Shown here in pieces: positions 1,538-36,348 of a stretch of DNA of 41,819 nt. The translations under genes and the position numbers were made by a program. Below the pieces are notes generated by a model that had not been told where the DNA came from, searched no databases, and saw only the letters and a list, made by a program, of their open reading frames with translations. The DNA comes from a virus. Lineage: Duplodnaviria > Heunggongvirae > Uroviricota > Caudoviricetes. Where the stretch lies: positions 1 through 41,819 of IMG/VR virus record IMGVR_UViG_2579779007_000006. The stretch is one strand, 5' to 3'. Numbering within the stretch: the stretch's first letter is position 1; the number at the start of each line of letters is the position of its first letter.

Positions 1538-3427
1538 ATGAAATCCGAGACGCTAACTGTCCAACAACTTTTTCAAGACCGCCGACAATACTGCGTTCCA
1601 TTCTATCAACGTGCCTATGTATGGACTCAGCGAAACCAATGGTCAGCTCTACTGGAGGATATCCTAGAGAAAGCACAATCCCGGCTCTCGGGTACAAAAC
1701 CAACTCCCCATTTCCTTGGTGCAGTGGTACTGGAACCTCAACCAAAAAAAGGATTATTAGGTGTAGATTCCATACATATTATTGATGGTCAGCAACGATT
1801 GACCACTCTTCAATATGTTCTGGCATCCATCCGATTAGCATTACGTGCGACAGATCTTTCCAACTTAGAGCCTCTCATTTCGTCTTGCCTGAAAAACTCA
1901 AACGAAGACACAATGCGAAATAAAGAAGTAGAGCGCTTCAAACTGTGGCCAACTTTTCGGGATCAAACTCATTTTATTCAAAGTTTTAATGTTGAAAATA
2001 TTGACGATATCCGGAATGTATTCTCTGATAGTTTCACGCAGCATGGTACGTTGCGTAAGCATTTTAATCACCCGCCATCACTAGAAGCATTATGTTTTTT
2101 TACTGAAGCCTTTATAAAGTGGATTAAAATAGAAAATCACTCACCACGAGAAAATGCTGTAGCATTAATTGAGGCTGTCTTGACGGATCTGAAACTAGTA
2201 AGCATATTTCTCGAGGCTGAAGATGACGCTCAAATAATTTTTGAAACATTAAATGGCAGAGGTGCGGAACTTCATGCCACAGATCTTATTCGCAATTATA
2301 TTTTTATGTGCGCTGAACATGAAAATATTAATGCTGTTGAATTATATGAGAATGAGTGGAAGATCTTTGAAGATACGTACTGGTCAGAAAGACAACGTCG
2401 TGGTCGTATTAATAAACCACGCATGGAGTGGCTAGTGCATGCGACATTGCAATCAGAAAGGCAACGTGAAATCGATCTGTCTCGTCTTTACAATGAGTAT
2501 CGTGATTATGTAAGTAAGGACTTGCCTTCACAACGAGCAGATCTGCAAGTAAAGCGCCTCAAACAATATGCATCACAATATAAAGAATTGGTTGGTGGTT
2601 TTGGCACAACCCCCATCTCACACTTTGGACATCGCATCGCAGCCTATGATGTGACGACACTTTATCCGCTTGCTTTGTTCATTTCGATAGCTAACATCGC
2701 CGATGATGAGAAAGCAGCCATGTATAATGATCTTGTCTCCTACGTAGTACGAAGAGCCGTATGTGGCCTGACGCCAAAGAATTACAACAATGTATTTATG
2801 AATGTATTGCGGCACTTGTCTAAAACGGAAATTTCCAGTGTTGAGTTACGTAATATCCTCAATAGCTTAAATGGCGAAGCCTCACGTTGGCCTGGGGACT
2901 CAGAATTTCTCAACGCTTGCATCAATGCTCCACTTTATCCTGGCAGGCTCGACGCACCGAAAATGCGCTCAATGTTAACGGAACTTGAAAGAGAACTTTG
3001 TCGCCAAGTGAAGACAGAGAAGCCTGATGTTCCAAATCTTTCTAACCTCGATATCGATCATCTTATGCCTCAAAGTTGGTATTCCTGTTGGCCTCTCGAA
3101 AATGGTCATATGGTGACAAATTCAGATGCTACGGTATTGAACCAAATTGTTCTGTCTGGAACCGATCTTACCCCTGAACAGCTACTGGTAAGGAAACGGC
3201 AACAAGCGATAGCTACGTTGGGAAATCTAACTTTGCTTAACCTTAGCGTAAACCGTTCTGTTCAGAATGCTGTATTTCTGAAAAAACGTGATGCTCTCAT
3301 CGTCCACACCAATCTACGACTGAACATTCCACTTATAGTTAAGGATAAATGGGATGAGGATGAAATCCTGGAGCGGGGTAAAAAGTTGGGGGAAATTGCA
3401 TTGAAAGTATGGCCAAAACACGATTAA
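1538..3427 (+). CDS. GmrSD-like type IV restriction endonuclease candidate (DUF262 N-terminal, DUF1524/HNH-like C-terminal)
   Basis: N-terminal FYQRAYVW and IIDGQQRLTT motifs are typical of DUF262; C-terminal DIDHLMPQSW is a His-Me finger-like motif. Start chosen at MKSETLTVQQLF; the longest ORF begins at 1478. Confidence 0.7.
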   Translation: MKSETLTVQQLFQDRRQYCVPFYQRAYVWTQRNQWSALLEDILEKAQSRLSGTKPTPHFLGAVVLEPQPKKGLLGVDSIHIIDGQQRLTTLQYVLASIRLALRATDLSNLEPLISSCLKNSNEDTMRNKEVERFKLWPTFRDQTHFIQSFNVENIDDIRNVFSDSFTQHGTLRKHFNHPPSLEALCFFTEAFIKWIKIENHSPRENAVALIEAVLTDLKLVSIFLEAEDDAQIIFETLNGRGAELHATDLIRNYIFMCAEHENINAVELYENEWKIFEDTYWSERQRRGRINKPRMEWLVHATLQSERQREIDLSRLYNEYRDYVSKDLPSQRADLQVKRLKQYASQYKELVGGFGTTPISHFGHRIAAYDVTTLYPLALFISIANIADDEKAAMYNDLVSYVVRRAVCGLTPKNYNNVFMNVLRHLSKTEISSVELRNILNSLNGEASRWPGDSEFLNACINAPLYPGRLDAPKMRSMLTELERELCRQVKTEKPDVPNLSNLDIDHLMPQSWYSCWPLENGHMVTNSDATVLNQIVLSGTDLTPEQLLVRKRQQAIATLGNLTLLNLSVNRSVQNAVFLKKRDALIVHTNLRLNIPLIVKDKWDEDEILERGKKLGEIALKVWPKHD

Positions 3428-3522
3428 TGCAATTAATAAAATGATTATAGCGGCTTTACATTAGTAAGGCCGCTACTCACTATTAAATCCTTTAATTTGC
3501 AACAAGAACAGCAGTGTCAGCC

Positions 3523-3651
3523 CTAGGTTTCGGACTTTGTACCGCTTATCTTGTCTTCAAAAATCAGCTCGCATCCTGCACAGCTCAACGCATTACGTTG
3601 TAGATCGGTGTTCTGGTCATTTGTTGATACGCGTACATAGCCAATAAGCAT
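3523..3651 (-). pseudogene. truncated Pin/Gin/Cin-family serine DNA invertase (N-terminal 42 codons only)
   Basis: Minus-strand translation MLIGYVRVSTNDQNTDLQRNALSCAGCELIFEDKISGT matches the N-terminus of Pin/Gin invertases, including the catalytic serine context (VRVST), then ends at a stop after 42 codons. The rest of the gene is absent. Confidence 0.75.
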
Positions 3652-3677
3652 GGTAGCTCCCCCTGACAAAAGCAGGA

Positions 3678-4214
3678 ATGATGCCATTTGCTCGTTATTT
3701 CTGCATTTTCATAAACGTTGGTTTGGGAGAAGGTTCGGCATTACCCGTTGGCGTGCCTGTTCCGTGGCCTTCCGCCACTCCGCCAACAGGCTGGCTGAAA
3801 TGCAACGGAGCGGCTTTTTCTGCTGAAGAATACCCGGAACTGGCAAAGGTTTACCCGACCAATAAATTGCCTGATTTACGTGGTGAGTTTATTCGTGGCT
3901 GGGATGATGAACGTGGTGTGGATAGTGGGCGAACTCTGCTTTCAGCGCAAGGAGATGCTATTCGAAACATTACTGGCGGTTTTGGTCAGTTGCGCGTAAA
4001 CAGCGAAATTAATGCAATTGTCGATGTTCAAAGTGTGAGTGGGGCTTTTTACGGAGGTACCTCAGTCAGGAATAACATCAATGTATCTATGACATACGCT
4101 AATGACCGAAAAATCCGACAAGATGTTCACTTCTCGGCGGCAAATGTTGTTCCAACAGCAAATGAAAATCGTCCACGTAACATCGCCTTTAATTATATTG
4201 TGAGGGCCGCATGA
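3678..4214 (+). CDS. alternative tail-fibre C-terminal (variable) segment, silent orientation
   Basis: ORF shares the GLGE junction with the minus-strand tail fibre and lies inside the invertible segment followed by its own tfa. It has no constant N-terminal domain in this orientation. Confidence 0.6.
   Translation: MMPFARYFCIFINVGLGEGSALPVGVPVPWPSATPPTGWLKCNGAAFSAEEYPELAKVYPTNKLPDLRGEFIRGWDDERGVDSGRTLLSAQGDAIRNITGGFGQLRVNSEINAIVDVQSVSGAFYGGTSVRNNINVSMTYANDRKIRQDVHFSAANVVPTANENRPRNIAFNYIVRAA
3706..3731. repeat. invertase crossover site (pix/gix-like), left copy
   Basis: ttttcataaacgttggtttgggagaa; its reverse complement shares a perfect 14-bp core (ttctcccaaaccaa) with 5590..5615. Both copies lie on the codons for LGLGE in the two tail-fibre reading frames. 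Confidence 0.7.
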
Positions 4215-33355: not shown

Positions 33356-33490
33356 AGCTTTCTCCTTTTTAGGTAGTTAAGTTGTTACGAGTTGCAAGAA
33401 TACAACATTAACAACTTTTATCACAACTTTTAGGTGTTGGAAAGCTAAAACATAAAGTTGTAACCTCATCAAAAAAGAGAGGGATATGTT
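33356..33490. promoter_or_regulatory. OR/PR-PRM-like divergent operator-promoter region
   Basis: Intergenic region between divergent repressor genes carrying repeated AAGTTGT/ACAACTT half-sites. Confidence 0.6.
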
Positions 33491-34177
33491 GTGAAAACAC
33501 TGGCAGAACGATTAAAGATAGGTAGAGAGAAAGCTGGCATGAGCCAAGCTCAACTAGCTGAAAAAATTGGACTTTCACAACAATCTGTAGCCAAAATAGA
33601 GAATGGCGAAACTCTACAACCGCGCAAAATTAAAGAAATTGCAAAAGTTTTAGGTGTATCACAAAAGTGGTTACAACTTGGTATTGAAGACAACGCATCC
33701 ATACCTGATCTTGTTGTAAAAGAAGCAGAAAGCACCGCATTAGACCCCGATATTTTCGTAAACATTCCTGTTTTAGATGTCGAGTTATCGGCAGGTAACG
33801 GATGTCTGGCTGAAATAGTTGAATCAGCTATTGACTGGTTTCCGTTAAGAAGAGCAGATTTGAGAAAATCTGGCGTATGTGCATCTAATGCCAAGATCGT
33901 AAAAATATGGGGGAACAGTTTATTACCGGTTCTCAATAATGGAGATCTTGTTGCCGTTGATATTTCTCAAACCGTTCCTATTCGTGATGGCGATCTTTAT
34001 GCCGTACGAGATGGTGTATTGCTAAGGGTTAAAATACTTATCAACTTACCTGACGGTGGCTTGATTCTTAGAAGCTTCAACAAAGATGAGTACCCAGATG
34101 AAATACTCACCTTTGAAGATAGACGAGCCAGAATTCATGTTATAGGTAGGGTATTCTGGTCATCGCGAACTTGGTAA
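33491..34177 (+). CDS. CI-like prophage repressor (HTH plus S24 peptidase domain)
   Basis: N-terminal HTH (MSQAQLAEKIGLSQQSVAKIENGE) and a C-terminal LexA/S24-like domain (SLLPVLNNGDLVAVD...RVFWSSR). Confidence 0.85.
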   Translation: MKTLAERLKIGREKAGMSQAQLAEKIGLSQQSVAKIENGETLQPRKIKEIAKVLGVSQKWLQLGIEDNASIPDLVVKEAESTALDPDIFVNIPVLDVELSAGNGCLAEIVESAIDWFPLRRADLRKSGVCASNAKIVKIWGNSLLPVLNNGDLVAVDISQTVPIRDGDLYAVRDGVLLRVKILINLPDGGLILRSFNKDEYPDEILTFEDRRARIHVIGRVFWSSRTW

Positions 34178-35050
34178 TGCATCGAAAAGCATTTCTTCAG
34201 AAATAATTTTAAGTTTTGCACCATTATCATCCCTATAAGATATAGCCTTTTCGATCTTCCTTCCGTGACTTGAGAATTTCCAATCACGGGAGGAAAGCGT
34301 CCCAATTACTAAAAAATCCAACTTTTGAGTAATTCCACTACTGATGTTCCCACCAGCATTTTTAATCAAATTTTCAACTACGGCTCTCTTTCCTGCAACA
34401 AAAGTGCCTGTAAGACAATAGGTTTTACCCTCTAACTCTATCGAAGCCCCTACATCAATAGGCAGCCTGGTCGCCAAACCATCCACCACCCCACTTTCCA
34501 AGTCACATCCTGTGAAGTCTACTAATGCCTTATGTAGAGTTAAACTCTCATCTTCAGTAATAACACCATCTTTAAGAATTTCCTTTACAAGTGCATAAAG
34601 TTTTTTTCCTGGGTAGTTGTTCTTCAAAGCTCCATTTTGCTCAAGCCACCAATTAAGATATCTTATTTCTTCTTGAGTTAAGTTCCGATCAGCAATTAAT
34701 CCTTTACATAGTCCATTAAGTAAATGGACATCTACATCCTTGGAGTAAAAATCAATTTCAGGGATATCAAGAATTTCCCTCTGTATTTGGAGAAGGCTAT
34801 TTTTAAGGTCATCACGTTCTTCTGATGTGATTATTCCATCCGCAAGAATATCCGACACCCGTGCTGATAGACTTTTTATAACTCCATTATTGATAATCTG
34901 CTTTGCTTCAAGTAACCATGTATCTAAGTAAAGAACCTCCTCTTCACGGACAACTCCATCTGCAATGATTCCATCAATGATGCTAATCAAGTTAGCAAAT
35001 AACTTGTCCCGGTTCTGTGTGTAATTAAAAGCGTAAAGCGCGTCTTCCAT
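34160..35050 (-). CDS. hypothetical protein: four TerB-like DGxxxxEE helical repeats plus C-terminal BRCT-like domain
   Basis: Start placed at MEDALYAF (AGGAGG ribosome-binding site 5 nt upstream). Four roughly 45-aa repeats begin DG[VI][VI]xxEE; the C-terminus (GKTYCLTGTF...AGGNISSGITQKLDFLVIG...GAKLKIISEEMLFDAL) is BRCT-like. Confidence 0.65.
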   Translation of the reverse strand: MEDALYAFNYTQNRDKLFANLISIIDGIIADGVVREEEVLYLDTWLLEAKQIINNGVIKSLSARVSDILADGIITSEERDDLKNSLLQIQREILDIPEIDFYSKDVDVHLLNGLCKGLIADRNLTQEEIRYLNWWLEQNGALKNNYPGKKLYALVKEILKDGVITEDESLTLHKALVDFTGCDLESGVVDGLATRLPIDVGASIELEGKTYCLTGTFVAGKRAVVENLIKNAGGNISSGITQKLDFLVIGTLSSRDWKFSSHGRKIEKAISYRDDNGAKLKIISEEMLFDALPSSR

Positions 35051-35094: not shown

Positions 35095-35160
35095 TTCAAA
35101 CCACATAAAGTTGTTGACAACATTCAAAACCACAACTAAATTACAACTTAAAGGTGTTAA
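35095..35160 (+). promoter_or_regulatory. OL/PL-like operator-promoter
   Basis: TTGACA (35114..35119), 17-bp spacer, TAAATT (35137..35142), embedded in the same AAGTTGT/ACAACTT repeats seen at OR. Confidence 0.55.
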
Positions 35161-35315
35161 AACAATGAGCAGGCAGGACGCCCACGAAGTAGCCGCCTGG
35201 GGCATATGAAGTCCAGGATGATTCGTTAGCAACAAAAAAGCGCCCTACAGGACGCTTAGCTCTTTAACAATCTGGTCCCCATCAACAAGTAACTGATAAC
35301 TTGAGGAGGTGTGAA

Positions 35316-35522
35316 ATGCACAAAACAGAACCAAAAATCGTCGCGCCCGGATACACAAATGAGGAAATTTACGAGTGGATGGCAAAGAAGCTGGCAGCTA
35401 TAAACCAGCTTCGTGAAGTGCTGTCTTATCGACAGGAAACAATAGACTCCTTAAAAAAACTGGATCAGGAAATCACGGTTTTATCACAGGATGTTACTTT
35501 AGATATTGTGCAGACAAATTAG
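35316..35522 (+). CDS. small hypothetical protein, first gene of the early-left operon
   Basis: 69 aa; GGAGG ribosome-binding site 7 nt upstream of ATG; predicted helical/coiled-coil. Confidence 0.55.
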   Translation: MHKTEPKIVAPGYTNEEIYEWMAKKLAAINQLREVLSYRQETIDSLKKLDQEITVLSQDVTLDIVQTN

Positions 35523-35928
35523 GATCCCATTCATTTTCGTCAAAATCATCAAAGTGATGAATTTGTGATCTCCAGTCTCGATAATCTAAAAATTTCTGGG
35601 CGGTTACGCTTATTTTATCAAGCGTGAGTTCATCCTGAATTGAAAGAAGAAGTTCATCAAATTTCATCTCATTAATCTGTTTTGGCATCCAGTGATGCTT
35701 CATCAGAATAAGGTGAACCAGAGCTTTTTTCCCATTCAACTGATTATAGGGAGTGCCGAATTTCTTCCGGTGCTCATGTAAGACAAGGTCCAGAAGAGTA
35801 AGTAATGTTGCCCTTGATTCAACTTTGCTTATTTCGACTGATGACACTACCCCACTGATTTCAATGCCCCGATACTTTCCAACATTTTCACAGTGGGATT
35901 TGTACAGCGTATAGATATTACCGGACAT
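35494..35928 (-). CDS. hypothetical protein
   Basis: 144-aa AT-rich ORF on the strand opposite the early-left operon, converging on the small plus-strand gene; no family recognised. Confidence 0.5.
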   Translation of the reverse strand: MSGNIYTLYKSHCENVGKYRGIEISGVVSSVEISKVESRATLLTLLDLVLHEHRKKFGTPYNQLNGKKALVHLILMKHHWMPKQINEMKFDELLLSIQDELTLDKISVTAQKFLDYRDWRSQIHHFDDFDENEWDPNLSAQYLK

Positions 35929-36214
35929 TTCTTTTCCTTTTGCGTTGTTGGGGATAACCAGATTAACCGAATCCTTGTTGTTGGGGAATAACCAGGTCCA
36001 CCTCGCCTGATGTGGCTAAAAGCAGGCACATAACAGCTAAGTATTTTCAACCAGAGAGAATCCTTAGCGTTGTGGTGAATGCGGCTCAGCGCACGCGGGT
36101 TAAGGTTGAGGCTGACAGTCGACCTTCTGTGGATACCCACCCGTCTGGTGTGCAACCTTCGCCAGGCACCGGGAGGCACCCGGCACCACAACTTTATGCT
36201 GTGTGTAGTCCCGG

Positions 36215-36259
36215 CGGTACCAGTTTGTACCCTTGCTTCCGGCTGGTACCGTCCTTTTT
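36215..36259 (+). terminator. terminator-like hairpin
   Basis: cggtaccag / ctggtaccg 9-bp stem with a 19-nt loop followed by TTTTT. Confidence 0.4.
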
Positions 36260-36348
36260 ACAAAACAGAGAAGAGCATCACCGGACGACGGGCTCATAAC
36301 CCAATCCATCCGGGCGGCTGCCACCGCAGGTGTTCTTCTCTGTTTTGT
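36260..36348. repeat. perfect 15-bp inverted repeat flanking a 59-bp GC-rich spacer
   Basis: acaaaacagagaaga (36260..36274) and tcttctctgttttgt (36334..36348) are exact reverse complements. Confidence 0.6.

Follow-up and report, generated by a model that had tools for sequence, protein, structure and literature searches.

A convergent, 3'-overlapping gene pair built around an ECs1072-family protein, very probably a linked accessory module of Enterobacterales temperate phages

The window analysed here, meaning the whole stretch of 41,819 nucleotides, is an E. coli lambdoid prophage of the SfIV/SfV/CPS-53(KplE1)-like type. The 951 bases spanning the gene pair under study match one E. coli chromosome at 100% identity; their identity to Shigella phage SfIV and to a number of Escherichia phages is 98-99%. 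The features around the pair are arranged as follows.

Before cI, minus strand: cro-like gene.
33491-34177, plus strand: HTH/S24 cI repressor, from a domain match.
34160-35050, minus strand: BRCT-domain gene, 296 aa, between cI and PL.
35114-35142, plus strand: PL-like promoter TTGACA-17-TAAATT, from a scan for sigma-70-like promoters, overlapped by operator-like half-sites.
35160-35227/35275, plus strand: early-left leader, which is the left flank of the cargo slot and is conserved in related phages.
35238-35257, minus strand (the ECs1072 strand): hairpin resembling an intrinsic terminator, followed by TTTTTTG.
35316-35522, plus strand: small partner gene, 68 aa, from the ORF call, its ribosome-binding site (RBS) and phrog_1744.
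35494-35522: 3' overlap of the two genes, 29 nt, read from the sequence.
35494-35928, minus strand: ECs1072-family gene, 144 aa, from the ORF call, NF033230 and phrog_5286.
35944-36034: right flank of the cargo slot with direct repeats, from the sequence and flank comparison.
36039-36262, plus strand: STnc100-like RNA, between the pair and yfdP.
Beyond the STnc100-like RNA, all plus strand: yfdP-yfdQ-yfdR...xis-int.

A preliminary description of this DNA had placed a convergent pair just downstream of a putative PL, and this layout was confirmed. A TTGACA-17-TAAATT promoter flanked by cI-operator-like half-sites precedes the pair, and the small gene is the first gene after PL, with the strong RBS that had been claimed for it (GAGGAGG, 6 nt upstream of the ATG). 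The 144-aa ORF on the opposite strand is found both by ORF calling and in RefSeq, is AT-rich as stated (GC 0.38 vs 0.50 for the window), and converges on the small gene with a 29-nt 3' overlap at 35494-35522. One correction concerns the length of the small protein, which had been given as 69 aa. The plus-strand ORF call runs over 35301..35522 and the conserved ATG lies at 35316; the coding sequence thus comprises 207 nt including the stop codon, that is 68 aa, and the same 207-nt CDS is present in RefSeq.

Half-sites of the form AAGTTGT/ACAACTT occur both in the cro-cI intergenic region (33400-33465) and around the PL-like promoter (35100-35160), and as operator-like elements they may define OR and OL of this immunity type. 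Because the half-sites are common to the cro-cI region and the promoter lies downstream of the S24/HTH cI gene, the PL assignment is supported and the promoter is credibly repressor-controlled. In SfV, PhiR29_1, Salmonella F1055 and Klebsiella phages, the leader at 35160-35227 is retained with 86-97% conservation, despite their differing immunity regions and cargo.

The small gene has a GC content of 0.41, against 0.50 for the window, and its product matches phrog_1744 over the full length (E=4.8e-34, positions 1-68 of 68). Homologues come from Klebsiella, Serratia, Yersinia, Citrobacter, Salmonella and Arsenophonus. The protein is acidic (pI 4.97, charge -3.4) and starts with MHKTEPKIVAPGY, an instance of the N-terminal motif M-x-K-x-E-P-x-I-x-A-x-G-x-(T/S)-x-E-E-(I/L)-x-x-W-(M/L). 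Across diverged lineages the motif takes the form M..K.(E/Q)P.(I/F).(A/N).G.(T/S).E(E/Q)(I/L)..W(M/L) and persists among homologues down to ~20% identity. Each homologue in the diverged lineages has its own Shine-Dalgarno sequence, and the RBSs are conserved. An AF2 model of the protein consists of an extended N-terminal segment and one long helix over residues 15-60 (pLDDT 86.9). Within the window lineage the small protein varies more than its ECs1072 partner (91-100% identity), and in E. albertii and some metagenomic variants its C-terminus is frameshifted.

The product of the opposite-strand gene matches the NCBIfam model NF033230, 'ECs1072 family phage-associated protein', over profile positions 2-142 of 142 with 157.8 bits (E=1.7e-46), where the curated cut-off is 70 bits, and it matches phrog_5286 with E=1.5e-90. 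RefSeq also names it an ECs1072-family protein, so the family name was already curated. For the large protein, an exhaustive HMMER search retrieved 76 representative clusters, each of stand-alone proteins of ~145-155 aa, from Escherichia, Shigella, Salmonella, Klebsiella, Yersinia, Serratia, Pantoea and Providencia. Residues conserved in the family alignment (A4) are R39, [HY]53-R54, L64, G66, A69, H72, K77, W80 and a C-terminal E-W134-x-P. The AF2 model is a compact, all-alpha single domain (pLDDT 91.8, pTM 0.85), and the protein is predicted to be soluble, given this model and a reading of the sequence by eye that found no hydrophobic transmembrane stretch.

Homology searches and structure prediction led to three families without assigned function, with a large protein that has no fold match and a small one made of a single helix. 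The large protein had no Pfam match at E<=1, including none to PF14163 that would mark it as SieB, and a PDB sequence-profile search with it found nothing. Foldseek with its model gave no credible relative in the PDB (best E 1.5) or in BFVD (best E 0.8). A relation to HD/HDOD proteins was considered, with a faint enrichment of matches, and was rejected on motif inspection and hhalign. The small protein and its family alignments likewise had no Pfam match in a scan at E<=1, and no DNA-binding fold of the HTH, RHH or AbrB type was found in its single helix. When both proteins and the family alignments were scanned against Pfam, NCBIfam, PADLOC and PHROGs, only unnamed or hypothetical families came up; in PADLOC-DB 2.0 there were zero matches for both window proteins and all 58 members of A4. 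That neither gene resembles N, kil or gam, as had been said earlier, holds: neither has a Pfam match, and the small protein (pI 5.0) lacks the arginine-rich motif of a lambda N-type antiterminator, being acidic instead. A literature search on ECs1072, the RefSeq accessions and the PHROG identifiers found no functional study and no paper that treats the pair as a unit.

To establish whether the two genes belong together, DNA around increasingly diverged homologues of the large gene was compared. In 12 of the 14 diverged lineages, a homologue of the small gene converges on the ECs1072 homologue. The lineages and contigs with the pair are as follows.

E. coli/Shigella: the window.
E. albertii: L090.
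Yersinia: L096/L097.
Klebsiella: L098.
Pantoea, P2-like: L103/L104.
Serratia: L005.
Metagenomic contigs: L091, L092, L093, L095, L100, L105.

The two exceptions are L089, where an intact large gene has no small partner, and L102, where a convergent ORF is present and the motif is absent. The reverse search gave the same picture. Among 80 phage contigs seeded with an 85-aa subfamily of the small protein, 77 carry an ECs1072-family ORF in the same convergent overlap; the other three have a deletion and retain the small gene alone between Q and holin (e.g. L183, 2932-3258). The identities of the two proteins also co-vary, with a Pearson r of 0.89 over 19 distinct pairs (171 locus pairs) and median identities of 32% and 30%.

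Selection was estimated from the 85-aa subfamily. The large gene has a dN/dS of 0.16 as a whole and 0.08 over the first 120 codons, and the small gene has 0.11 over its 55 non-overlapping codons and 0.75 in the overlapping tail. In the window lineage, a biased sample made up of the best-scoring 80, the ECs1072 protein is identical in 84 loci despite 16 synonymous variable codons. The scores for NF033230, phrog_5286 and phrog_1744, together with the low dN/dS, indicate that neither ORF arose by chance. The doubt left earlier, that one or both ORFs might lack conservation or a coding signal, is removed by these results, as both families are conserved and both are under purifying selection.

The same data bear on the reading that these are two independent abutting genes, the small ORF being either an unremarkable early gene or no coding sequence at all, only the antisense image of the ECs1072 3' UTR. 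In its favor, the small ORF of the E. coli lineage has 12 amino-acid-changing against 8 synonymous variable codons, and PGAP leaves it unannotated in some genomes. Against these stand the N-terminal motif kept to ~20% identity, the dN/dS of 0.11 outside the overlap, the conserved RBSs and the co-occurrence in 77 of 80 contigs. The co-occurrence and selection data refute this explanation, which is given next to no credence. The idea of a pair is instead backed by co-occurrence and a conserved convergent overlap in distant phages, and we hold with high confidence that the two genes form a cognate, linked accessory module of Enterobacterales temperate phages. What is new here is the recognition of the two genes as a fixed module; the family name of the large gene already existed.

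The overlap has a distinctive anatomy. Its length in the relatives varies between 29 and 269 nt. The 10-nt palindrome TGGGATCCCA lies within it in 71 of 80 related loci and encodes W-D-P on both strands, as part of E-W-D-P in the large and of F-P-W-D-P in the small protein. In the window, the proline codon of the large gene is CCT rather than CCA, which turns the TGG of the small gene into TAG. The 68-aa form is therefore the version truncated exactly at the tryptophan codon of the palindrome.

The position of the module in the phage genome varies, and its orientation does not. The pair lies just after PL in the window, L090, L092, L095 and L096/L097; in the PR operon, after cro, in L093, L098 and L105; between Q and holin, in the late region, in L005, L100, ST64B and 77 viral loci; and in the early operon of a P2-like phage in L103. 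In every case examined, the small gene points the same way as the phage operon, and its ECs1072 partner is encoded on the antisense strand. In the window the pair occupies a slot whose flanks (left 35160-35227/35275, right from 35944/35998) are common to SfV, PhiR29_1 and Salmonella phage F1055, with unrelated genes between them. Among complete E. coli genomes, the flanks were found in 1912 of 5426 and this cargo in only 406 of 5426 (~7%). The large gene had been proposed as an antisense moron, and it behaves as one, in a variable cargo slot just after PL.

These positions bear on whether the pair regulates the phage life cycle, with the large protein acting in the lysogen on induction, early/late timing or lysis and the small protein countering it after derepression. 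First after PL, after cro and after Q are typical places for a regulator, the orientation rule links the pair to lytic transcription, and Owen et al. list the ST64B homologue of the large gene, STMMW_20121, as 'accessory or regulatory' (PMC7067206). The same module nevertheless occurs in four operon types, in lambdoid and P2-like phages with unrelated circuitry. Its slot also holds swapped, unrelated cargo in close relatives, which argues against a core regulator, since such a gene would not be so dispensable. A regulatory role of this kind is considered improbable.

The cargo seen in the slot differs from relative to relative. PhiR29_1 (L087) has a 242-aa minus-strand gene at 2637-3365, SfV (L086) has orf33, a 98-aa plus-strand gene, F1055 (L088) has three small genes at 2586-3680, and other E. 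coli genomes have a gene for a 'ClpX C4-type zinc finger protein'. The slot is a cargo hotspot worth mining. Its right flank contains a direct repeat, GTTGTTGGGGA(A)TAACCAG, at 35944-35961 and 35977-35995, which is common to PhiR29_1 and F1055 and also accompanies the ECs1072 homologue in L091. This repeat may hold a minus-strand promoter or mark a recombination boundary.

Evidence for expression comes from Salmonella prophage ST64B, which carries the module between sb49 (Q-like) and holin, with the small gene annotated as sb50/STMMW_20131. For the large gene, the phage record has no annotation; its counterpart in strain D23580 is STMMW_20121 (2090066-2090500), which overlaps STMMW_20131 by 71 nt. 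STMMW_20121 matches the A4 profile with E=1e-43, and STMMW_20131 matches the small-protein profile with E=1e-35. ST64B thus shares with the window the same two families, the same convergent overlap and a large gene antisense to lytic genes. It differs in that the module lies between Q and holin, not after PL, and in that the small protein is 85 aa long with an extra C-terminal FPWDP.

Owen et al. (2020, PMC7067206) drew attention to STMMW_20121, which they found to be transcribed from a promoter of its own in nearly all of 17 conditions, antisense to lytic genes, and they regarded it as a candidate for an accessory or regulatory role. Neither the partner gene nor the family or the module was recognised in that study. 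In their Table S5, STMMW_20121 reaches 70-270 TPM in 16 of 17 conditions, similar to cI and bstA of BTP1, and STMMW_20131 reaches 23-258 TPM in lysogens, with the Q-like gene at 2-7 TPM and holin at 0.3-33 TPM (PMC7067206). The ECs1072 family is therefore expressed in lysogeny, as seen in published RNA-seq of the ST64B homologue. The level of STMMW_20131 in lysogens means that a small protein made only in the lytic phase is not general; in ST64B this gene probably sits behind a constitutive late-promoter leader. ECs1072 itself is among the growth-phase-responsive genes on O157 Sakai arrays (PMC2241611). In the part of the D23580 transposon-sequencing data that was available, the intergenic region neighbouring the pair is scored 'not required'.

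The arrangement also has antisense potential. The terminator-like hairpin on the ECs1072 strand lies 54-58 nt beyond the start codon of the small gene (58 nt in the window) in the window and in L091, where the hairpin is conserved and its loop changes. In the 85-aa subfamily, the hairpin on the ECs1072 strand falls within the small gene, opposite its conserved KAALEERL codons. From these positions, the ECs1072 mRNA is predicted to be antisense to all or part of the small gene. In the window, the ECs1072 transcript would be antisense to the whole small gene, and read-through of the host operon would conversely be antisense to ECs1072. A promoter scan found no consensus promoter for the ECs1072 strand in the window; a weak minus-strand promoter, TTCCCC-N17-TAATCT, would likely be located in the right flank. 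Upstream of the large homologues of the 85-aa subfamily, an extended -10 (TGATAAAAT) is conserved.

Several known systems resemble the module in part. In lambda N/sieB, P22 sieB-esc and Rac ydaF-ydaG/sieB, a gene expressed in the lysogen lies antisense to the PL operon and converges on its first small gene or genes. SieB is a membrane protein with an exclusion or abortive-infection function, from which its own phage protects itself, and in P22 the self-immunity product, Esc, is made from within sieB itself rather than from a convergent gene of its own. The sieB systems are like the module in being antisense to the PL operon and convergent on the first small PL gene(s). They differ in the protein, since SieB is a PF14163 membrane protein and the ECs1072 protein is predicted to be soluble and all-alpha and has no Pfam match. 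The two types can also be neighbors: in the Yersinia locus L096, a genuine sieB gene (PF14163, 3827-4321) lies in tandem with the ECs1072 homologue. The BstA-aba system of prophage BTP1 is similar in having a lysogen-expressed gene by the immunity region, with TPM like those of STMMW_20121, and a built-in sparing of its own lytic cycle. BstA has ~307 aa with a KilA-N-type domain and relies on a DNA sequence as its immunity element; it is a different protein, with no sequence or fold relation to ECs1072. By analogy, sieB/esc and BstA/aba may be regarded as the nearest conceptual precedents.

Toxin-antitoxin systems of types I and II resemble the module in pairing a small gene with a larger one, in the close linkage of the two and in antisense transcripts that overlap. 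This raises the alternative of an addiction system, in which ECs1072 would be the toxin, the small protein and/or an antisense RNA the antitoxin, and the main effect stabilisation of the prophage rather than defence. The layout of a small and a larger gene fits it, as do the strict linkage and co-divergence, the transcription of both genes in ST64B lysogens, the type-I-like antisense potential of the overlapping 3' ends, and the occurrence of orphan small genes, as orphan antitoxins occur. Type II systems differ, however, in being bicistronic, with co-oriented and co-transcribed genes; all lineages examined here have the two genes facing each other and overlapping at their 3' ends. Furthermore, no toxin or antitoxin domain was recognised in Pfam, the PDB or BFVD; a DNA-binding domain is absent from the small protein, as is a known toxin fold from the large one. 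The intact large gene without a small gene in L089 and the tolerated C-terminal frameshifts of the small gene also speak against it. Addiction is judged an unlikely main role.

The reading preferred here is that the pair is a cognate two-gene accessory module, expressed in the lysogen, with the small gene as the modulator partner, and this is thought to be probable. ECs1072 would most likely be the lysogen-phase effector, and the small helical protein the cognate antidote or modulator that acts on it. The earlier suggestion of a toxin/antitoxin-like or defence/anti-defence pair would be plausible as a hypothesis. In the proposed mechanism, the ECs1072 protein would be made in the lysogen from its own promoter, and its mRNA would cover the small gene in antisense. 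Firing of the host operon (PL in the window) would bring strong convergent transcription and RNA pairing, which would damp ECs1072, and the small protein would be produced, which may bind or antagonise the ECs1072 protein. The phage's own lytic growth would thereby be spared from the activity of the module, which would most likely be exclusion or abortive infection of other phages, or may be another benefit to the lysogen.

Such a specific mechanism of defence with self-immunity is put forward tentatively, as a possibility with somewhat less than even support. In its strongest form, the module would be an unrecognised prophage anti-phage system of the exclusion or abortive-infection kind, whose effector fold and self-immunity logic would both be new. 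Its antidote would be the convergent, 3'-overlapping small gene in the phage's own lytic operon, and induction would both silence the effector by antisense and supply a protein inhibitor. This stronger form is speculative and, on balance, rather doubtful. If a role in defence or exclusion were true, the family would be a new effector family whose self-immunity is achieved via gene orientation. Recognised as one module, the 'transcriptomic curiosity' STMMW_20121 becomes a testable two-component system, with relatives in prophages of Salmonella (ST64B of SL1344, 4/74 and D23580), Klebsiella, Yersinia, Serratia, Pantoea and Providencia.

Two neighbouring elements were also observed. The BRCT protein encoded at 34160-35050 on the minus strand matches PF00533 (E=1e-6) and phrog_3989, and is a weak PADLOC candidate (PDC-S48, E=2.4e-7). 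The gene is present only in some of the phages with the ECs1072 pair; it looks like a second moron of the lysogen type and is a possible defence candidate. In an Rfam scan, no family overlapped the pair, and the sole match was the adjacent RNA of the STnc100/PasD family (RF02076) at 36039-36262 on the plus strand, with 41.6 bits, just below the gathering score of 47 (E=1e-6). This stretch is covered in RefSeq by a 'frameshifted hypothetical protein', a pseudogene that is probably a mis-called RNA.
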